Assembly: GCA_040772365.1 (NCBI GenBank)
Contig: JAXGYI010000003.1
Coordinates: forward strand, 7,234-71,233
Source: Candidatus Moraniibacteriota bacterium
Lineage (GTDB): Bacteria; Patescibacteriota; Minisyncoccia; Moranbacterales; GCA-2747515
Reading direction: 5' to 3'
Length of the DNA: 64,000 nucleotides
Each line of letters begins with the position of its first letter. Position 1 is the stretch's first letter. The position numbers and the translations under genes were made by a program. Of this stretch, positions 24,615 to 34,814 are shown piece by piece. The notes beneath the pieces are model-generated. The model worked only from the letters and a program-made list of their open reading frames with translations, ran no database searches and had not been told where the DNA came from.

Positions 24615-26048
24615 TTGTTCTCCGTGCGCGACGCACAGGCGCAATTTCAAGAGGTACGATTGACATCCGGCTTTTTTGGGGAATATAGCCCATCGTTGTC
24701 TGGGGATAAAATTGTATGGCTTGACAATCGTCATTCAAGCGAAACAGATACAGAGGTTTATTTGTATGATTTTACAACAAAAAAAGAGAGACGCATTACA
24801 AATGTTGCTAGTAGAAAGGATGATGTCTCTATTTCTGGTAATCGGATTGTATGGACGGATTGGCGTAATGGAAATCAGGATATTTACATGTACGATTTAG
24901 CTACAAATGTTGAAAAACGTATCACTACCAATACCAAATCGCAAGTGTATCCAAAAATTGACGGAGATAAGATTGTATGGCAGGACTATCGAGATGGATC
25001 GATAGGGTCCGCTGTGTATATGTATGACCTTGCCACTAACACGGAGAAGCGACTTGTTACTTCCGAGGGGAAATATCAGGAACGCCCCGCAATATCTGGC
25101 AACTACGTTGTATGGTCTGATACAACCAGCAATCCCAATGGGCTACTACGGCTGTATAATATCTTCACTAGTGTCACAACGTATCCCTTGATTAGCGACA
25201 AGGGAGATCGTATGGACTTTGTTGCAATTTCTGGTAATAAGGTGGCGTACAGATATAACGAAAATGGAACAGGGCGGTACAATGTCTACGTCTATGACAT
25301 TGATACAAAAACAGAAGTAAAGGTAACAAAAAATACAACAACGGACCTACGAGATCTGGCAATTTCTGGTAATAAGGTGGCATGGACAGACAATCGCAAT
25401 GGCAATCTCGATATTTATCTTTATGATCTTGCAACTGCCAAAGAAACGCGCATCACAACCAATGCAGAAGAGCAGTCTGAGCCAACAATTTCTGGAAATC
25501 GGCTGGCGTGGAAGGACTTTCGACATGGAGGTGCAGACATCTTTCTTGTAGACTTTTCTCCTACAGCTGTGGAACCGCCAGTAGCTACTCCCAAGCCCGT
25601 TCACCGCTTCTACTCCGAAGAATTTCAAGCACACTTCTACACCATCTCTGAAGTAGAGAAAAACCATATCATTGCCACTTATCCACCCCGCACCTGGAAC
25701 TATGAAGGTGTTGCCTATAATGCGATTAGTGATAGTCTTCCGGGTATGGCGCCGATCCACCGTTTCTATTCTCTGGCTAGTAGAAAGCATTTCTATACCA
25801 TCTCTGAAGAGGAAAAGAACCGTCTCATTGGCGGAGCATATCCGGCAGCACAATTTACTTATGAGGGTGTTGCCTGGTACGCACACCAAAAGAACGCTGC
25901 TGCAACACGTCCGCTGCATCGCTTCTATTCCGAGAATAGTGCTGTGCACTTCTATACGGCATCGGAAAGTGAAAAAAACCACATCATTGCCACCTATCCA
26001 CCCCATATTTGGAACTATGAAGGAGTGGCGTGGCATGCGTTACAATAA
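24615..26048 (+). CDS. Secreted beta-propeller-repeat protein (TolB-like ISGxKIVW…DIYMYDL blades, about 8 copies) with a C-terminal module of three ~45-aa RFYS…HFYT…YEGVAWYA repeats
   Basis: Tandem blades of ~42 aa. In frame upstream of the TTG at 24615 lies a signal-peptide-like segment (…FAPIICFCASALFSVRDAQA) without a canonical ATG, so the true start is uncertain. C-terminal triple repeat at ~25595-26040. Confidence 0.7.
   Translation: MFSVRDAQAQFQEVRLTSGFFGEYSPSLSGDKIVWLDNRHSSETDTEVYLYDFTTKKERRITNVASRKDDVSISGNRIVWTDWRNGNQDIYMYDLATNVEKRITTNTKSQVYPKIDGDKIVWQDYRDGSIGSAVYMYDLATNTEKRLVTSEGKYQERPAISGNYVVWSDTTSNPNGLLRLYNIFTSVTTYPLISDKGDRMDFVAISGNKVAYRYNENGTGRYNVYVYDIDTKTEVKVTKNTTTDLRDLAISGNKVAWTDNRNGNLDIYLYDLATAKETRITTNAEEQSEPTISGNRLAWKDFRHGGADIFLVDFSPTAVEPPVATPKPVHRFYSEEFQAHFYTISEVEKNHIIATYPPRTWNYEGVAYNAISDSLPGMAPIHRFYSLASRKHFYTISEEEKNRLIGGAYPAAQFTYEGVAWYAHQKNAAATRPLHRFYSENSAVHFYTASESEKNHIIATYPPHIWNYEGVAWHALQ
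25605..25813 (+). repeat. Direct repeat copy A (~209 bp, apparently identical to 27092-27300)
   Basis: Nucleotide stretch cgcttctactccgaagaatttcaagcacacttctacacc…tctgaagagga recurs 1487 bp downstream. Confidence 0.8.
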
Positions 26049-26132: not shown

Positions 26133-27535
26133 ATGAAGAAACTATGCCTCTTTATTCTCCCGACACTCTTTTTCATCGGACAGTCAACATGGGCGCAGGA
26201 AATGCGTATCACTCTTAATGATGGAGTGGATCATTATAATCCTGCAATTTCTGGTGATAAAATTGTTTGGAATGATATCGTAGCGGGAATGGAGATATTT
26301 ATCTCTACGACCTGACAACCGGAGAGGAAACGCGTATCACAACGGATGTGGAATCTCAGAGAGATCCCAGTATCTCTGGCGACAAAATTATTTGGAAAGA
26401 TCTTCGAGATGGCTTCTTCGGCAGTATTTATATGTATGATCTTACTACGAAAACAGAAACGCGTATTACGGGAGGTCTCGCAGTTCCATTTTATCCAAAA
26501 ATATCTGGCAATATCATTGTATGGGAGGATCGGAGAGAGGCGGGTAATCCGGACATTTATATGTACGATCTGACTACAGGCACAGAAAAAAAGGTTAGTA
26601 CGTATGCCAGTAAAAAGTCTAAACCAGCTATTTCTGGCAATAACATTGTGTGGGAGGATGAGCGCAATGGCAATTCGAACATCTATATGTATGACCTTGC
26701 TACAAATACAGAAAAAAAGATTAGCACACATACTAGTAGACAGATCGTTCCAGCTGTTTCTGGCAATATCATTGTGTGGGAGGATTATCGTGGTGGCAAC
26801 TGGGACCTCTACATGTATGACCTTTCTACAAACACAGAAAAAAAAGTTACTACGGATACATATGAAAAGAAAAATCCCTCCATCTCCGGTAATATCATCA
26901 CATGGGATGATAATCGTCATGGGAGTCGTGATATTTATATGTACGATCTAGTACGTTAAAAAGAGAAACGACTTACTCATGGGGCGGTATCTTGGAATTC
27001 TAGATTGTCCGGCAATCGAATTGTCTGGAGCGATAGTCGCACGGGAACATATCAGGTCTATCTTGTGTACACAGACAATCAACCTATCTATCGCTTCTAC
27101 TCCGAAGAATTTCAAGCACACTTCTACACCATCTCTGAAGTAGAGAAAAACCATATCATTGCCACTTATCCACCCCGCACCTGGAACTATGAAGGTGTTG
27201 CCTATAATGCGATTAGTGATAGTCTTCCGGGTATGGCGCCGATCCACCGTTTCTATTCTCTGGCTAGTAGAAAGCATTTCTATACCATCTCTGAAGAGGA
27301 GAAAAACGAACTCATCAACAATAAATACCCTGAAGCAAAATTCACCTATGAAGGTATTGCATGGTATGCACACAAAACACCGCAATCTTTCACCACACCT
27401 CTGTATAGATTCTACTCAAAGGCCCATGCCGTTCACTTCTATACCGTTAGTCAAGCAGAGAAGGAATACATTCAAAACACCTATCCGCAAGATATCTGGA
27501 ACTATGAAGGTATTGCGTGGTATGGGATGAGGTAG
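26133..27535 (+). pseudogene. Disrupted paralogue of the upstream beta-propeller/triple-repeat surface protein. It has a signal peptide, propeller blades and the C-terminal repeat module, but is broken by a 1-bp deletion (~26277) and an in-frame TAA (26957-26959).
   Basis: ORFs 26070-26315, 26348-26959 and 27005-27535 read as one protein across a -1 frameshift (gat-atc-gta-gcg-gg where the blade consensus predicts gat-Tat-cgt-agc-ggg). The stop falls where the blade consensus has Thr/Asn. Confidence 0.6.
27092..27300 (+). repeat. Direct repeat copy B (~209 bp identical to 25605-25813)
   Basis: See copy A. Encodes identical aa …RFYSEEFQAHFYTISEVEKNHIIATYPPRTWNYEGVAYNAISDSLPGMAPIHRFYSLASRKHFYTISEEE. 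Confidence 0.8.
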
Positions 27536-27664: not shown

Positions 27665-29743
27665 ATGAAAAACATATTTTATACGATCATATTTCTGAGC
27701 GCTATTTTTTTGTGTAGTGCAACAGCAGAGGACGTGTGTGCCGCTGATTTACATGTGCCGCAAGGTGGCTATAGTACCATTGGTGCAGCTATTAAAGCTG
27801 CGCAGGCAGGCGATCGTGTTATAGTGGCACCGGGTATCTATCGTGAAAATATTAGTATCCGTAAAAATATTGCAGTCATTTCTACGGATGGTGCAGCGCA
27901 CACGGTTATTGATGGTGGCGGACGTGATACGGTGGTACTTTTTGCTGACACTAGATTTGATGGTACGCATTCCGCACGTCTGTCGGGCTTTACAATTCGT
28001 GGCGGTCGTAGTGGTGAGGGACGTGGTGGCGGCGTTACAATGTACAATACGGATGGCATCGTAGAGCAGTGCAATATTATAAGCAATGTATCAACTATGG
28101 ATGCCGGTGCAATCTTGATGAATGATCGTGTGAACGGTGTAGTACGCAACAATACGATTACCGGTAATACTGCTGTGCGCTTTGGAGGTGCGATTATGGT
28201 AGTTTTGAATTCCCATCCACTCATCTATGGCAATACAATTACAGATAACACAGTGAGTGGCAATGCACTGTCGAGTGGTGGTGCACTTTTTGTGGACAGC
28301 CATTCATCGCCACAAGTTGTTAACAACACCATGCGCGGAAATACTGCAGCATTTGCTGGGGGTGCAATCTCGCTGCGCGTGGGCGTGAATGCAGTGATTG
28401 ATGGCAATACGATTGACCGTAATAGTGCCGCATATGGTGGTGGGATTCACATTGAAAGTGAGGGTGGCGGCGCATTACTCCGCGATAACACTATCACAAA
28501 TAATAGTGCGCACGAGAGGGATATTTCTGTAGGCTCTGGTTATGGTGGCGGCATCTCCATCTATGATAGGTCTGTGCCAACCATTGAAAAAAATATCATT
28601 GAGTCGAATTATGCAGATCGTGGTGGTGCAGGAATTGTTATTGCTGAGCAGGCAGTAGCGACGATTGCGCATAATACAATTCGAGGAAATAGCTTGCCAC
28701 AACAGGATGGACGCGTGGGTGGTGGCATCCATGCAACACATGCGACCATGCAGGCTTATAATAACACTATCAGTGATAATACAGCATTCATCGGTGGTGG
28801 CGTGGCACTTTTAGCAGGCGTGACAGCAAGGGTAGAGCAAAACACTATTGTACGCAACACTGTGCCAACATCCACGGCAGTGAATGCGGCAAGTGGTGGT
28901 GGTATTTTTATCCAAAGCTCTGCAGCATCTGCAGTAGTGATCAATAACATCATTACGCAAAATCAAGATCACCAAATTTTTGAAGAGCATAAAAAGGGTG
29001 TACTACGCAATAATATTGTCAATGATGACAGTAAGGGGATGTATTTCAACTGGGACACCTATACACTACACACAGTAACCGACATGGACAGTAGCAGCGC
29101 TGTTAATGCAGATGGTACGGTGAGTGGCACGGAGGGTTTTACAGATAGCGATTTTCGTATTGGCGCAACATCTGTTGGTATTGATAGGGGCATGAGCTCT
29201 GACATGACGTATGATTATGATTATCGCTTGCGCAGTGGTGTGCCAGATATTGGTGCTTTTGAGTATGCGCCATCATACAGTGTAGTACATCCAGTATATC
29301 GTTTTTGGAGTGATACTTTTGGTCATCACTTCTATACACTTAATCAACAAGAGCGTAATCACATTATGGAAACGTACGCTGCGAAGCAGTGGCGGTATGA
29401 GGGCGTGGCATTTCGCGCATTTCCTCTAGCACAGTGCCAGGGAGATCGTGTGTATCGTTTTTGGAGTGACGTTTTTCGCGGACACTTTTATACCATTTCT
29501 ACACAGGAGCGTGACTATATCATGGCATCATATGCGGACAATGTGTGGCGTTATGAGGGTGAGGCGTATTGCGCACAGCGTACTTCTATCACTGGGACAA
29601 CGGCACTCTTTCGCTTTTGGAGTGCGGCGTATAGCGGACACTTCTATACCATTAGTACCGCAGAGCGTGATCAGGTTATTGCAGCATATGATGACAGTAT
29701 TTGGAACTATGAGGGTGTTGGATATCATGTGTATACGCGGTAG
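27665..29743 (+). CDS. Secreted right-handed parallel beta-helix (NosD/pectin-lyase-fold-like) protein with a C-terminal triple RFWS…HFYT…YEG repeat module
   Basis: Signal peptide MKNIFYTIIFLSAIFLCSATA. About ten repeats of the NNTI(T/S)GN(T/S)A…GGAI type (PbH1-like). C-terminal three ~45-aa repeats at ~29285-29740. Confidence 0.7.
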   Translation: MKNIFYTIIFLSAIFLCSATAEDVCAADLHVPQGGYSTIGAAIKAAQAGDRVIVAPGIYRENISIRKNIAVISTDGAAHTVIDGGGRDTVVLFADTRFDGTHSARLSGFTIRGGRSGEGRGGGVTMYNTDGIVEQCNIISNVSTMDAGAILMNDRVNGVVRNNTITGNTAVRFGGAIMVVLNSHPLIYGNTITDNTVSGNALSSGGALFVDSHSSPQVVNNTMRGNTAAFAGGAISLRVGVNAVIDGNTIDRNSAAYGGGIHIESEGGGALLRDNTITNNSAHERDISVGSGYGGGISIYDRSVPTIEKNIIESNYADRGGAGIVIAEQAVATIAHNTIRGNSLPQQDGRVGGGIHATHATMQAYNNTISDNTAFIGGGVALLAGVTARVEQNTIVRNTVPTSTAVNAASGGGIFIQSSAASAVVINNIITQNQDHQIFEEHKKGVLRNNIVNDDSKGMYFNWDTYTLHTVTDMDSSSAVNADGTVSGTEGFTDSDFRIGATSVGIDRGMSSDMTYDYDYRLRSGVPDIGAFEYAPSYSVVHPVYRFWSDTFGHHFYTLNQQERNHIMETYAAKQWRYEGVAFRAFPLAQCQGDRVYRFWSDVFRGHFYTISTQERDYIMASYADNVWRYEGEAYCAQRTSITGTTALFRFWSAAYSGHFYTISTAERDQVIAAYDDSIWNYEGVGYHVYTR

Positions 29744-29794: not shown

Positions 29795-30253
29795 ATGCAA
29801 TCTATGAGGTATTTATGGATTTTAGTTGGTGGTATTGGCGCCATGATAGTTATGGGATGTAGCAGCGATCCGGTGTCTGTAACACCACAAAAAAAAGACA
29901 TCTTCGCTCCGCAAAACGCAGGGGACACTACGTCGCTTGATGCATCGCAGGATGGCGCATCGTCAGTTGTAGATCATGCAGAGCCACAGTCAGCCGCCAC
30001 CGCACCAGGGAATGATTTGTCACAATCAGATCCGGTGGAGCATGCATCGCAAGCAGTATCATCAGAACATGTATCGCCGAAAGAGCAAGGCACTTCTGCA
30101 GAGGCTACTGCAACAGCAGGGCATGCATCCGAAAAAAAAGAGACGTCTTCCGTGAGTGATGCAGACATGGAAAGGATTGCTGCAGAGGCAAAAAAATGTG
30201 TTGACGGTGGCGGCGTATACAACACATTTGCACAGAAATGCTTTCAAAACTAA
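29795..30253 (+). CDS. Small lipoprotein, low-complexity Ser/Ala/Glu-rich
   Basis: Signal peptide with lipobox …AMIVMGC|SSDP. No recognisable domain. Confidence 0.45.
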   Translation: MQSMRYLWILVGGIGAMIVMGCSSDPVSVTPQKKDIFAPQNAGDTTSLDASQDGASSVVDHAEPQSAATAPGNDLSQSDPVEHASQAVSSEHVSPKEQGTSAEATATAGHASEKKETSSVSDADMERIAAEAKKCVDGGGVYNTFAQKCFQN

Positions 30254-30263
30254 ATAGATAGTG

Positions 30264-32132
30264 CTATGGGATGTGCCATCCGATTCCCTCATAGCGCCAG
30301 ATGTGATCGGGATATGTCGCAATAACAGTATCGCGTTCAGGGGCACTCGCTGTATAGAAGTGTCCTTGTTTTGTGTCAGACCAAAAGCGGTAGACCGGCG
30401 TGGATTGCGCGAGAGGGTAGGGGTAAGCATAGTAGGCAATACCCTCATAGTTCCATATGTAGGGATCATACTGCGCAATAACGGCGTCGCGCTCTTCTTG
30501 TGAAGCTGTATAGAAATGATGTTGCTGGGCAGTACTCCAAAAGCGGTAGATCGGCGTAGTGTTTGCTTGTTGCTGCGAGAAAGCAAGAAAGGCAATTCCC
30601 TCATAGCGCCAGATGTGGTCTGGGTAGGTTGCAATGACAGCATCACGCTCAGTAATGCTTGCTGTGTAGAAATGCCCTTGTGTCGCAGCAGACCAAAAGC
30701 GGTAAATGGGTGTTGTCGCGCATGACTCTGTTGGAATGGTACCGGACTGTGCAGCGCGCAAGGCAGTGTAGAGATTTAGTCGTCTGTTGCATGCTACAGT
30801 ATTTTCTAGAGAAGCCGGATGATCACTACTTGCAAGGATGATGGCGCGTACTGCTGTGGGAGAGAGAAAGGGCTTGTGTCCGAAAATCATTGCGGCAGCA
30901 CCTGAAACAAATGCGGCGGCATAGGAGGTACCGTCGCCGGTGTAGTAGGTGTTATTTTCTATAGTGCCTACAATACTTTCACCTGGTGCAGCGATGTCTA
31001 CAGATGTACCATAATTAGAAAATGATGCCAAAGTGTCATTTTTTGTAGATGCTCCGACGCAGATGATGTTAGAGAGATCGTAATTGCATGGGTACTGCGG
31101 AGTGACATCAACATTGTCGCCAACTCTGTCATTGCCACCATTGCCTGCAGCAGTAACGACTACGCCATCAAATGTAGAAAGGGCATCATATTCTGATCTT
31201 GCATAGGATGGTCCGCCAAAACTGGCATTAAGCACCTTAATGCCGTGTGTTTTGGCAAATGCAATTGCTTGCAATTCTGATGCTAGGGTGAGGTCAAATC
31301 GTAACGCCATAATTTTGCCAGTATTATAGCGGCTCATACCGGCAAGTCCGGTAGCATTGTTCGTAATGGCGGCAAAAATACTAGCTACCATTGATCCGTG
31401 ACCATATAAGTCAGGGTGTGTGGATGTATCATAGGGATCATGGTCATCATCGGCGAAATCCCAGCCATGCTTTGGGCATGTTGCATCCATTGCGGGATTA
31501 CAGTGAGGGGCTGTCCAGAGATTTCCGTGCAACTCAGGATTGTCATGGAGGATCCCGCTATCAATAAATGCTACAGTTGTAGGTGTTGCAGAAGGGTGTT
31601 CAATATCCCACGCCTCTGTGCTATCAATATCACTATTCGTGGACTGTTGGTGGTACCACTGGTAACCCGCAATGAAATACGGATCATTTGGACTAAATGC
31701 TGGCGTCTTGATATAGTTGGGCTCGGCATAGGCTACATCGGCACTTGCAGAGAGTCGCGCAATGAGCGTCTCGGTGTTTTCCTCTTCCGCTGCAATAATG
31801 ACAATATTGAGATCAGTAAAAGAATGTCGGATTTGCAGGGCATCAGTTTTTGCGGCAGCCTTAAGAGAGGAGAGAATCTTATCACTTGCATGCGCAGTGA
31901 TGTCATGTGGAGATGCAGATATGCCAATTTCTTTGCGTGTAGCCGCGTGAAACTTCTTGATGGCAGTATCATGCATGCGTACAATAACCTCACCATCTCG
32001 ATACGGTGCTGGATGGGTAGCGTGATTGAATGGGCGCTGAGGGAGTTCTTCAGCAGCTACTGTGTGGGTATGTGGAATACATAATGCAAAAACAATAGCG
32101 GCGGTAGAAGCGCAGGAAAGTATTTGTGTCAT
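30264..32132 (-). CDS. Secreted subtilisin-like serine protease (peptidase S8) with a C-terminal triple RFWS…HFYT…YEGIA repeat module
   Basis: Catalytic triad contexts AFIDSGI (Asp), HGSMVAS (His), GTSYAAAFVSGAAAM (Ser). Signal peptide MTQILSCASTAAIVFALCIP. Start chosen at the internal Met (the ORF track extends to 32297, overlapping the next gene). Three C-terminal repeats encoded ~30264-30700. Confidence 0.8.
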   Translation of the reverse strand: MTQILSCASTAAIVFALCIPHTHTVAAEELPQRPFNHATHPAPYRDGEVIVRMHDTAIKKFHAATRKEIGISASPHDITAHASDKILSSLKAAAKTDALQIRHSFTDLNIVIIAAEEENTETLIARLSASADVAYAEPNYIKTPAFSPNDPYFIAGYQWYHQQSTNSDIDSTEAWDIEHPSATPTTVAFIDSGILHDNPELHGNLWTAPHCNPAMDATCPKHGWDFADDDHDPYDTSTHPDLYGHGSMVASIFAAITNNATGLAGMSRYNTGKIMALRFDLTLASELQAIAFAKTHGIKVLNASFGGPSYARSEYDALSTFDGVVVTAAGNGGNDRVGDNVDVTPQYPCNYDLSNIICVGASTKNDTLASFSNYGTSVDIAAPGESIVGTIENNTYYTGDGTSYAAAFVSGAAAMIFGHKPFLSPTAVRAIILASSDHPASLENTVACNRRLNLYTALRAAQSGTIPTESCATTPIYRFWSAATQGHFYTASITERDAVIATYPDHIWRYEGIAFLAFSQQQANTTPIYRFWSTAQQHHFYTASQEERDAVIAQYDPYIWNYEGIAYYAYPYPLAQSTPVYRFWSDTKQGHFYTASAPERDTVIATYPDHIWRYEGIGWHIP

Positions 32133-32229
32133 TGCGCGCTGAAAATATGTTTTGCGGGAAAGAGTAGTGTAGATATACACTTTGTTGAAGTGGTTCATGT
32201 GCCAAGGCATAGCAGGAGGTGATGTTGTG

Positions 32230-32784
32230 TTACAGACTTTCAATAAATTCTTGTTGTAGACGTGTAATGCACGTTTTTTTGATTCCACCATCATCAATTT
32301 CGTCGCAGATGGTTATATCTTTTTGTGCGATAGCACGGTCTTTGAGACAGTAGTCCTTTGGTAGTCCATTGTGTGCATCGCAATGTGTGATGGAATCACT
32401 AGAAGAAAGACCGCAGGCATTTCTGCAATAACGAAGCTCCTTTGCGTCATGTTTGTACGGCTCACATTCACGTGCACAATCTGGTGGGGTGATGTTGATA
32501 TAGGCTGTGGATGGTGATGTAGTAGCGGGAGGGACGGTATCTTGTGGCTCTTGTTCTACGATAGATTGCGGATCTAGATCGTTGTGCGTAATAGGCACAT
32601 CAGGGGTTTCTACTGGCACGTCATGTTGTGATGGTGGTGCTGTGTCTGTAGGTGGTGTGACGAAAACGTCACGGTCACGGGCGCTGAAAACAGTGATTAC
32701 AAAATAGAGCACGATAATGACAGCTATGGTGAGTGCCGTGTAGAGGATGTGTATAGGGCGTAGATTTTTTCGTAGCATAGTCAT
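32230..32784 (-). CDS. Membrane-anchored protein with a Pro/Thr-rich linker and a Cys-rich C-terminal domain (hypothetical)
   Basis: N-terminal TM anchor MTMLRKNLRPIHILYTALTIAVIIVLYFVITVF, then a PT-rich stretch, then about 10 Cys over 90 aa. Start trimmed to avoid overlap with the upstream gene. Confidence 0.4.
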   Translation of the reverse strand: MTMLRKNLRPIHILYTALTIAVIIVLYFVITVFSARDRDVFVTPPTDTAPPSQHDVPVETPDVPITHNDLDPQSIVEQEPQDTVPPATTSPSTAYINITPPDCARECEPYKHDAKELRYCRNACGLSSSDSITHCDAHNGLPKDYCLKDRAIAQKDITICDEIDDGGIKKTCITRLQQEFIESL

Positions 32785-32801: not shown

Positions 32802-34712
32802 TTAGTATGCAGCATCGAGTGCGATATCCTTGTAGTAGTAACGCATAATGCGTGCGTAACTCCATCCATGATCGCGAGCAAGAGCAAGAGATCCGTGTGC
32901 AATAAGGCCTACCATGTGATTACCCTCAGTCTCTAGTGTAGATGTGGATTTTGTGGCGTGTTTGCCATAGGGATCTTTGACGGATTGGCACCATGGATAT
33001 AGTCTTGATCCCCAGCGCTCCTCAAAGCTGCGCGTACGACCATCACTCCAAGAGCTATATGGCGTGAGTGCTGTTTCGCCACGTGATGTCATAATGACGC
33101 CACGGGTTGCCTCTGCTGCTTTGCGGATAGTGGAATATTTCTGTTCCCAGTCATAGCCACGGTAGATTTGCGAACCGCTATCAGAGCGAATCTTGAATCC
33201 CAACGGAGCGTACTTTGTAGCATAATCTACGTACCACTTTCCGTAAGTGCGGAACATCGTTGTCATGACCTTGCTATGTTCAAATGGTCCGGTGCCGGTC
33301 ATCTCGCCCATACCCCATACGTAGTGCTCCATCGGCAAGGTATTGATTACCCAAATCTGCTTAACGCTATTTGTCGTACCGCCAATGATGTCACGTCCAC
33401 TGTAGTAGCGCACAGTGATGGATCCACGGTAATGATCGTAAGAGGACTGTGGGCGATGCACGTCAAAGATCATCGTGGCATTATCACCATCAGCAGCGTC
33501 AAAAGTGACTTTTTCATCAATAATGCGATCGCTGATGGACGAGTAAACTTTGAGACTTCCACCACCATCGTAAGTGACTTTTGTGCGCGTGCTACCACCG
33601 ATTTGCGCTATGATCGCGCCACTCTTGTCGCGGATGTTATAAGGCTTGTTAGCGTTAATTTCAAAAGGATTTTGCTGCATGGCAGAGCGGTCGTAGTGCC
33701 ACAGACCGACAGAAATGAGTGGACCAGTATTGCCGATGAGGGCGTAGTGTTTTTCTATGTCGTTGATGGTGTAGAAGTGATCGCGGGTGTTATAGAGACG
33801 ATGGACAGGTAGTGTGCCTACAGTTGGCGTGGGGTAGGCGTAGAATGCAACACCTTCATAGATATAGCCAGATGCTGTAGAACTCAATTGATCTTTTTCA
33901 TGTGTGCTGATGGTGTAAAAGTGATTACCAGTGATGGTGTGATTGAAACGATAAACAGGTTGCGCATTATTTTTTGGATCACGAAACGCATAAAATGCTG
34001 CGCCCTCATAGCGGTATGGTGTGCGGTTTTGCAAGAGAGTGCGCTTTTCATTTTCGTCAGCAGTATAGAAGTGATTCCCTGTAGTAGTATTGATGAAGCG
34101 ATAGATGGTATGATTGGCCATTTTAGTGGCGTTGTCCAGTGTCGCAGCCTCACCATCGTTAGCAGTATAGAAATGATCGCCATTAGCGTGGTTAATGAAG
34201 CGGTATACGGTGGTAGTGCCAGCCGCCTTATGTGGATAGGCATAGAAAGCAATGCCTTCTGATGCGTAGATAGTAGAGAGGTGTTGGGTAATGTAATCTT
34301 TTTCTTCTTGAGAAATGGTGTAAAAGTGGTCACCATTCGTATGATTGACGAAGCGGTAGATAGGCTGTGCATCGTGTAGATCGGAGATATAGCTATAGAA
34401 TGCAATACCTTCATAGGTGTAGATGTCTGCGTGCTGTGCAATAAGAGTATTTTTTTCGTTTTCGTCTGCAGTGTAGAAATGATCGCCGTTTGTAGTGTTG
34501 ACAAAGCGGTGGACGGGCACGGTGCCGTCTGCTTGTGCGGCAAATGCGTAAAAAGCTACTCCTTCCGCCTGATATTGCGTGCCGACGGTGTGATCAGGGT
34601 AGGCGTAGAATGCGATGCCCTCATCCGTATAGCTCGCATGTGTACTATGTTGTGGCAAGAGAATAGCACTGCCAAGGAGCGTCCATGCGATGATTAGTGC
34701 GATGTGTTTCAT
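32802..34712 (-). CDS. Secreted protein with an N-terminal array of about 6-8 RF[VI]N…GDHFYT…YEGIAFYAY repeats and a C-terminal SpoIID/LytB (amidase-enhancer) domain
   Basis: Signal peptide MKHIALIIAWTLLGSAILLP. Repeats over aa ~25-330. The C-terminal domain carries SpoIID-like …MEHYVWGMGEM… and …GNHMVGLIAHGSLALA… motifs. Confidence 0.7.
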   Translation of the reverse strand: MKHIALIIAWTLLGSAILLPQHSTHASYTDEGIAFYAYPDHTVGTQYQAEGVAFYAFAAQADGTVPVHRFVNTTNGDHFYTADENEKNTLIAQHADIYTYEGIAFYSYISDLHDAQPIYRFVNHTNGDHFYTISQEEKDYITQHLSTIYASEGIAFYAYPHKAAGTTTVYRFINHANGDHFYTANDGEAATLDNATKMANHTIYRFINTTTGNHFYTADENEKRTLLQNRTPYRYEGAAFYAFRDPKNNAQPVYRFNHTITGNHFYTISTHEKDQLSSTASGYIYEGVAFYAYPTPTVGTLPVHRLYNTRDHFYTINDIEKHYALIGNTGPLISVGLWHYDRSAMQQNPFEINANKPYNIRDKSGAIIAQIGGSTRTKVTYDGGGSLKVYSSISDRIIDEKVTFDAADGDNATMIFDVHRPQSSYDHYRGSITVRYYSGRDIIGGTTNSVKQIWVINTLPMEHYVWGMGEMTGTGPFEHSKVMTTMFRTYGKWYVDYATKYAPLGFKIRSDSGSQIYRGYDWEQKYSTIRKAAEATRGVIMTSRGETALTPYSSWSDGRTRSFEERWGSRLYPWCQSVKDPYGKHATKSTSTLETEGNHMVGLIAHGSLALARDHGWSYARIMRYYYKDIALDAAY

Positions 34713-34814
34713 AGACCTTCATTATACCATAATGTGAGGATTTGTGTGTGTGAAGAAAAGGAGTATACTGAAAGACATTGCTATGTAGGATAACATATTG
34801 TCAGATCTACTACT

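Follow-up and report, generated by a model that had tools for sequence, protein, structure and literature searches.

SpoIID is known as a peptidoglycan enzyme of sporulating bacteria. In Clostridioides difficile, its residue E101 was identified as catalytic by mutagenesis (PMC6221140) and is equivalent to E88 of the Bacillus subtilis protein (PMC6221140; PMC6635528). In the Chlamydiales (Waddlia chondrophila), which are non-sporulating and have a reduced genome, a SpoIID homologue has been described as a septal glycan-strand cleaver (PMC6635528). DUF5648 is described in the literature as a three-bladed (beta3-alpha)3 domain with the blade order beta1-beta2-alpha-beta3. It constitutes the C-terminal receptor-binding domain of the O-antigen-targeting Bacteroidales toxins BSAP-2 and BSAP-3, besides being present on GH70 enzymes, as an auxiliary domain, and on one GH25 endolysin; glycan binding has been proposed for the domain by inference from these toxins, enzymes and endolysin. 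Here, both families are described on a single gene at 32802-34712 on the minus strand of a 64,000-nucleotide stretch of contig JAXGYI010000003.1 from a Candidatus Moraniibacteriota bacterium, the whole of which is called the window below. In the literature, no paper was found in which SpoIID is mentioned alongside Patescibacteria or the Candidate Phyla Radiation (CPR).

The product is best read as a secreted peptidoglycan strand cleaver of the SpoIID/LytB family, targeted by DUF5648 domains, in non-sporulating Moranbacteria, a reading to which we assign a probability of roughly 0.6. The protein would be exported by the Sec pathway and lose its signal peptide, after which two lectin-like DUF5648 domains would hold it on a glycan of the cell envelope, possibly peptidoglycan or a secondary surface polysaccharide such as would be produced through the flanking glycosyltransferase genes. 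The module at the C-terminus would then cleave the bonds between N-acetylmuramic acid (MurNAc) and N-acetylglucosamine (GlcNAc) through Glu470 by a putative lytic transglycosylase chemistry, as SpoIID does on denuded strands, probably in cooperation with a membrane-tethered protein with eight cysteines (8-Cys) that could serve as anchor or regulator.

The open reading frame (ORF), which the earlier note on this DNA had placed at 32802-34712 on the minus strand, stands at exactly these coordinates in the ORF listing and encodes 636 amino acids (aa) from an ATG start. The whole gene, as defined by the ORF listing and the Pfam matches to DUF5648 and SpoIID, has the following layout: a signal peptide, an N-terminal repeat array (aa 28-327), and a C-terminal SpoIID/LytB module (aa 330-636). 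The Sec-type signal peptide (aa 1-26, MKHIALIIAWTLLGSAILLPQHSTHA; 34635..34712, minus strand) was read directly from the sequence and is probably cleaved after THA. An alignment of 80 homologues served as input for an AlphaFold2 model with a mean predicted local distance difference test (pLDDT) of 92.2, in which the N-terminus forms a helix at 2-17 followed by disorder at 18-24. An identical protein (P0001) is present in NCBI assembly GCA_040769235.1. A promoter and terminator scan gave counts no better than those of shuffled sequence.

The SpoIID/LytB module (32805..33725, minus strand) was delimited with Pfam, NCBIfam, PDB alignments and Foldseek, and is composed of a beta-rich subdomain (aa 330-455) and a catalytic part (aa 456-636). 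Pfam SpoIID (PF08486) matches aa 451-542 with 33.6 bits (E 6e-8), above the gathering cutoff of 23 bits, and the match spans model positions 3-96 of 97. A sequence search of the PDB returned three solved SpoIIDs as its sole matches, 5i1t, 5txu and 4rwr, reaching E 5e-10. The fold agrees: Foldseek against the PDB placed 5i1t_A at the top (E 9.4e-11, probability 1.00, 294 aligned columns, target-normalised TM score 0.54), followed by 4rwr (E 2.7e-8) and the spore-cortex lytic transglycosylase SleC, with nothing further significant, and pLDDT exceeds 90 throughout the domain. Glu470 (codon at 33303..33305, minus strand, checked), which lies in a 'GEM' motif, pairs in the PDB alignment with residue E101 of the C. 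difficile enzyme (5txu numbering) and is the predicted catalytic glutamate. Together with R488 of the conserved 'RTY' motif, it is invariant across the 80-homologue alignment; the assessment of the active site covers the catalytic Glu and this aligned Arg. The sporulation equivalog TIGR02870 clearly failed, with 36.6 bits against a cutoff of 234.75. The protein is thus a member of the SpoIID/LytB family by Pfam threshold, catalytic residue and fold, divergent and truncated, and is not a sporulation protein.

The module begins at aa 330 and not at about 450, because G330 and G336 of its opening motif 'GPxISVGLW' are invariant even in homologues without DUF5648 and because the tblastn matches of short homologues begin at query residue 327. 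The strand at 332-340 ('GPLISVGLWHY') was also considered as the last strand of the sixth repeat and was rejected: the motif is invariant in DUF5648-free homologues, the strand dissolves in a model of the array alone, and the short forms match from 327.

The N-terminal array belongs to Pfam DUF5648 (PF18885), which matches the protein in three stretches with 267.7 bits (E 2.5e-80), above its gathering score. A motif scan revealed six RF[VI]N..G[DN]HFYT units that begin at residues 66, 117, 168, 202, 252 and 302, and six EG[IVA]AFYA[YF] strands, two of which are orphaned at aa 28-38 and 46-57. A hidden Markov model (HMM) of the single repeat, made from the repeats of the window itself, has eight matches in the target protein (locus L001, 9995-11908). 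The repeats constitute their own subtype, RF[VI]N..GDHFYT as against RF[YW]S....HFYT in the neighbouring genes, with a linker shorter by one or two residues; repeats R1-R5 share 38-55% identity with each other and about 21-52% with the repeats of the neighbours, a similarity well above what chance would give. A profile of the domain searched against PDB sequences for a solved DUF5648 structure gave only chance-level matches, such as the 'GHFYT' of ribosomal protein bL33 (E 0.3).

The secondary structure of the array was assigned by DSSP on two AlphaFold2 models, the full protein and aa 25-345 alone (pLDDT 90.6), in the second of which R6 stays confident while aa 336-345 are disordered. If A denotes a beta1-beta2-helix unit and b a beta3 strand, the elements are arranged as bbAbAbAAbAbA, with blades running beta1-beta2-alpha-beta3 at a pLDDT above 90, and all of the elements lie on the minus strand. 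The first is an orphan beta3-type strand, YTDEGIAFYAY (aa 28-38; 34599..34631; DSSP strand 29-38, pLDDT about 88-93), which is kept in the family consensus. It is followed by a second orphan beta3 strand (aa 46-57; DSSP 47-57) and by R1 (aa 64-108; DSSP 65-108) and R2 (aa 115-159; DSSP 116-159), each A plus b, and then by R3 (aa 166-196; DSSP 167-195), which is A without beta3. The pattern is repeated in R4 (aa 200-243; DSSP 201-243) and R5 (aa 250-293; DSSP 251-293), each A plus b, and in R6 (aa 300-327; DSSP 301-326), again A without beta3.

Six A units and six b strands therefore amount to the strand count of exactly two three-bladed domains, with two beta3 strands displaced N-terminally. 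In the simplest reading of the models, the array consists of two circularly permuted domains, of which domain A would be contiguous at aa 46-196, made up of the second orphan strand, R1, R2 and R3 (34125..34577, minus strand; motif scan and AlphaFold2/DSSP). The blades of domain B are R4, R5 and R6 (aa 200-327; 33732..34115, minus strand; same sources), and strand bookkeeping suggests that the strand at 28-38 completes this second domain, in which case domain A is possibly inserted into domain B. Permutation is supported by single-domain relatives such as P0042, whose order bAbAbA leads straight into 'GPxIxVGLW'. The exact strand order of the target is common to eight close homologues in a regular-expression census and is visible in the family consensus; the census is clean for close homologues and noisy for divergent ones, and only clearly parsed classes were used.

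These results agree with much of the earlier note. Its C-terminal SpoIID/LytB-like domain aligns by HMM, PDB sequence and fold, and the structure prediction it proposed as a check, through the AlphaFold2 model and Foldseek, places the C-terminal module with SpoIID. Its statement that such domains stimulate cell-wall amidases or act as lytic transglycosylases accords with the literature, and the N-terminal repeats are of the same family as the C-terminal ones of the neighbours, all being Pfam DUF5648. In place of its about 6-8 N-terminal copies there are six units, best read as two three-bladed domains and not as loose repeats.

No feature is linked more tightly to the enzyme than the partner gene downstream (32230..32778, minus strand), a gene outside the finding of the earlier note, which starts 23 nucleotides past the stop codon of the target. 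It encodes 182 aa with an N-terminal transmembrane helix, a linker rich in Pro, Thr and Asp, and a C-terminal 8-Cys domain, and is 41% identical to the syntenic gene in locus L002. Of 80 related loci, 65 have a homologue directly downstream in the same orientation, or 65 of the 75 with enough downstream sequence, and four more have one elsewhere. The pairing holds regardless of the N-terminal module of the enzyme, and all eight cysteines are kept in 71 of 71 partner sequences. The partner matches no Pfam or NCBIfam family and has no database name; a database search with it returned at least seven proteins, all unnamed, and its distribution as given here rests on the locus analysis rather than on that search. 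It could act as an anchor or a regulator of the enzyme.

The target gene sits between a UDP-glucose dehydrogenase/glycosyltransferase cluster and a group of DUF5648 enzymes, and a relative with 57% identity has the same neighbours for UDP-glucose dehydrogenase, GT2, GT4 and LPG_synthase_TM. A segment of low G+C content lies at 12001-18000 (0.30-0.38 versus 0.44-0.53 elsewhere), over large plus-strand ORFs that include one of 993 aa at 15698-18679; it may be a horizontally acquired part of the glycan-biosynthesis region. The GC skew is positive in every 2-kb bin of the window (1-64000) and most large ORFs lie on the plus strand, which is consistent with the whole window being on the leading strand of one replichore.

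The window was also compared with a sister assembly, locus L001 (GCA_040769235.1, JAXGLK010000004.1), to which positions 22802-44712 are 99.3% identical, with 51 gap openings over 18.6 kb. Several genes are in fragments in the L001 record, including those for UDP-glucose dehydrogenase and the S8 protease, and are intact in the window; the differences look like indel-type assembly errors in one of the two versions.

The conserved glycan-biosynthesis synteny would also suit a re-purposed SpoIID-like fold whose substrate is an envelope polysaccharide other than peptidoglycan, perhaps one made by the adjacent glycosyltransferase/UDP-glucose dehydrogenase cluster. The core is divergent and truncated, and the N-terminal modules found on it are of carbohydrate-binding type, such as F5/8 type C. 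However, the characterised members of the fold, SpoIID and SleC, all act on peptidoglycan and the active-site motif is kept, and we consider such a change of substrate very improbable.

A protein search found 1809 relatives of the target. The best non-self relatives are 57% identical, have the same architecture, and come from metagenome bins of Moranbacteria or Parcubacteria; several of them already bear a name, 'SpoIID/LytB domain-containing protein' at NCBI or 'peptidoglycan hydrolase-like amidase' at JGI. Among species-representative genomes, 138 loci with a relative were identified, nearly all in Moraniibacteriota or Patescibacteria, and this spread within the lineage, together with the glycan-gene synteny, supports a housekeeping distribution of the enzyme. 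Many contigs with this Moranbacteria-type gene, among them L004, L008, L010, L026 and L030, bear the titles 'uncultured Bdellovibrionales', 'Micavibrio', 'Saccharibacteria' or 'Fimivivens'; such titles in third-party submissions of metagenome-assembled genomes (MAGs) are probably taxonomic mislabels.

The same core carries different N-termini in different relatives. Proteins of about 610-655 aa have two DUF5648 domains, and P0037 (837 aa) has three. A single DUF5648 is present in P0042, where its order is permuted, and in P0066 and P0072, where it is standard. P0075 has a NedA-like galactose-binding domain of the F5/8-type C, and other relatives have a region without a Pfam match or almost nothing (about 380 aa). 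Interchangeable N-termini on one core are the pattern expected of a targeting module. A profile of the three-repeat units of the window matched 17,146 representative clusters in a library of 1.84 billion proteins. In 88 of the best matches, the partners of DUF5648 include Peptidase_S8 (7), M23 (4) and CARDB (4), as well as reprolysin-like, M10 and C1 peptidases, beta-helix, PL14, GH18, GH25, Amidase_2, tyrosinase and GDSL lipase. As a module of secreted proteins, the three-repeat domain is thus promiscuous, with wall hydrolases as just one subset of its partners.

Two candidate histories of the array were rejected: a recent tandem expansion, since Tandem Repeats Finder finds nothing in 33600-34720, and a recent exchange of repeats with the neighbours, since the repeats of the target form a separate subtype. 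The absence of periodicity in the DNA and an architecture kept at 50-57% identity indicate that the fusion is old; it is ancient, lineage-wide and widespread in Moranbacteria. The repeat had been proposed as an autonomous, transferable module and as evidence of module shuffling. Transfer is upheld by the exchange of N-termini on the core and by the many unrelated catalytic domains that carry DUF5648, with the three-repeat domain and not the single repeat as the autonomous unit; shuffling is real at the level of the family and does not extend to recent exchange with the neighbours.

Several observations weigh against a DUF5648-targeted peptidoglycan strand cleaver. The NCBIfam model of the SpoIID/LytB domain, TIGR02669, gives 70.8 bits (E 1.6e-19), under its cutoff of 83.3, and its best stretch covers model positions 2-135 of 270, the first half only. 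About 75 aa of the sporulation SpoIID are absent between the S-x-S-x-G-x-T region and the G-H-x-V-G motif, and this loss together with the TIGR02669 shortfall means that the activity could differ from that of SpoIID. The literature contains no experimental demonstration of a DUF5648 ligand. The commonest partners of DUF5648 are secreted proteases and not wall hydrolases, and the link between DUF5648 and peptidoglycan is therefore not specific, which leaves the tie to peptidoglycan drawn in the earlier note weak. Among the neighbours examined, there is no amidase gene, which would supply the denuded strands. Finally, the predicted template modelling score (pTM) is 0.62-0.63 in both AlphaFold2 models (full protein and N-terminal array), so the models do not settle how the domains are placed relative to one another.

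The truncation relative to SpoIID and the score below the NCBIfam domain cutoff would fit a non-catalytic modifier resembling LytB, in which the module binds glycan strands and stimulates a separate amidase, and the SpoIID/LytB family does include amidase enhancers. The invariance of the catalytic Glu and the nearby Arg in 80 homologues is, however, unexpected for a purely regulatory protein, and a nearby amidase that such a modifier could stimulate is likewise missing from the neighbours examined; a purely regulatory role is thus judged highly unlikely.

The DUF5648 genes around the target constitute the second part of the locus. In a six-frame scan, four further ORFs of the window proved to have three copies of the motif at their C-terminal ends, and Pfam assigns these neighbours as well as the target to DUF5648 (neighbours 104-189 bits, E between 7e-30 and 5e-56). 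The first encodes a PD40/TolB-like beta-propeller with a C-terminal DUF5648 (24615..26048, plus strand; Pfam and NCBIfam). The second, identified by three-frame translation and tblastn, is a PD40-DUF5648 paralogue (26133..27535, plus strand) that is broken in this assembly by two lesions, a frameshift (near 26290) and an in-frame stop codon (TAA at 26957), and is 53% identical to the PD40 protein over 432 aa (tblastn). The third (27665..29743, plus strand; Pfam), which has equivalents in L006 and L019, encodes a NosD-like right-handed beta-helix protein that has a signal peptide at one end and DUF5648 at the C-terminus, and the fourth a Peptidase_S8 (subtilase) with a C-terminal DUF5648 (30264..32297, minus strand; Pfam), which follows the pair of SpoIID-like and Cys-rich genes also in L006, L040 and L043.

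The interrupted paralogue may be a pseudogene or an assembly error; the window and the sister assembly are structurally different in this region. A 176-aa ORF at 27005-27535, considered as a stand-alone DUF5648 lectin, was rejected as such, being the tail of this paralogue; the four neighbours with three C-terminal repeats that had been pointed out are accordingly all present, with the qualification that 27005-27535 is not a separate small protein. The DUF5648 DNA of the two PD40 paralogues is 92% identical over 287 nucleotides (25605-25891 versus 27092-27377), and their repeats pair position by position (R1-R1 96%, R2-R2 78%), from which it follows that the DUF5648 block was copied as a unit. 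This suggests a recent duplication or gene conversion of these regions, which L001 joins differently. Between the beta-helix and S8 genes lies a 152-aa ORF (29795-30253, plus strand), whose N-terminus (…GAMIVMGCSSD) is lipoprotein-like and precedes a low-complexity region rich in Ser, Ala and Gln. This ORF matches no family.

In related loci, extra DUF5648 genes within 10 kb occur only where the SpoIID-like gene itself carries DUF5648, which fits a lineage-specific use of the module. They comprise S8, beta-helix, GH26, Kre9-like Ig and DUF285 fusions; examples beside the SpoIID-like gene of relatives are found at L027:916-2457 (-), L027:2518-4719 (-) and L019:996-1898 (+).

With its relatives included, the locus thus resembles a battery of secreted degradative enzymes with a shared module (S8, beta-helix, GH26 and DUF285), which raises the alternative of an offensive or foraging enzyme, in which DUF5648 binds a glycan of a host or neighbouring cell and delivers the strand cleaver along with the S8, beta-helix and propeller proteins. 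Moranbacteria are presumed episymbionts, DUF5648 is receptor-binding in BSAP-2 and BSAP-3, besides occurring on a phage endolysin, and the partners of the wider DUF5648 family are mostly secreted hydrolases. Nevertheless, the SpoIID-like/Cys-rich pair is found almost throughout the lineage, independent of the type of N-terminal module, and holds a fixed position beside genes for envelope-glycan biosynthesis and ribosomal genes, which fits a housekeeping role better than a variable weapon. SpoIID-type enzymes, moreover, act on denuded strands and require an amidase first, and no host is known for this MAG. An offensive role is therefore regarded as unlikely, and the strand cleaver of the cell's own envelope is preferred.

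An extension of the preferred reading combines four elements: surface anchoring by DUF5648, a SpoIID-like principal strand cleaver, an 8-Cys controller, and a nested, permuted pair of lectin domains. DUF5648 may be a Moranbacteria-specific tether to a secondary glycan from the adjacent glycosyltransferase cluster, the tethered set may comprise the SpoIID-like cleaver, S8 protease, beta-helix enzyme, propellers and GH26, and the undescribed 8-Cys partner may replace the SpoIIM/SpoIIP logic of sporulating bacteria. That all four hold jointly is doubtful, and the combination is put forward as speculation.

Both modules are in Pfam and homologues have already been named automatically, so the domain call is correct but routine. 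The target is an ordinary new member of two catalogued families with an architecture common in Moranbacteria, and just two points go beyond routine annotation, the permuted arrangement proposed for the two domains and the conservation of the 8-Cys partner. Members of the CPR have reduced genomes and a poorly understood wall turnover, for which the enzyme and its 8-Cys partner are candidate glycan-strand cleavage machinery. One organism with DUF5648 on five different secreted proteins beside glycan genes offers a good setting for ligand discovery, and the permuted, possibly nested pair of domains is a case of repeat-protein evolution.

Among known systems, Gram-positive bacteria have triple-repeat wall anchors, including the CWB2 modules of C. 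difficile, SLH domains and choline-binding repeats. DUF5648 resembles these in being used in threes, in being common to many secreted enzymes, and in lying near surface-glycan genes; it differs in that neither the target nor the neighbours have such Pfam matches, and anchoring to the cell's own wall by DUF5648 is only proposed. The DUF5648 domains of GH70 enzymes and BSAP toxins belong to the same Pfam family and have three blades per domain in the order beta1-beta2-alpha-beta3, and the neighbours, like most members of the family, have this standard order at the C-terminus. In the target, by contrast, the domain is N-terminal and doubled, and each copy would have beta3 as its first element and a helix as its last.

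SpoIID of Bacillus and Clostridioides (4rwr, 5i1t and 5txu) agrees with the target in sequence, HMM and fold over aa 330-636; E470 corresponds to E101 of C. difficile and E88 of B. subtilis, and the R-T-Y motif, the S-x-S-x-G-x-T region and the C-terminal H-x-V-G are kept. The organism, however, is not a sporulating Firmicute, and the Zn site specific to C. difficile SpoIID is absent. Where SpoIID has an N-terminal membrane anchor, the target has a cleavable signal peptide and two lectin-like domains, and its conserved neighbour is an 8-Cys membrane protein and not SpoIIM or SpoIIP. The SpoIID homologue of Chlamydiales, as described, has no DUF5648 array; the two are alike in being enzymes of the SpoIID family that work outside sporulation, plausibly as the main strand cleaver.

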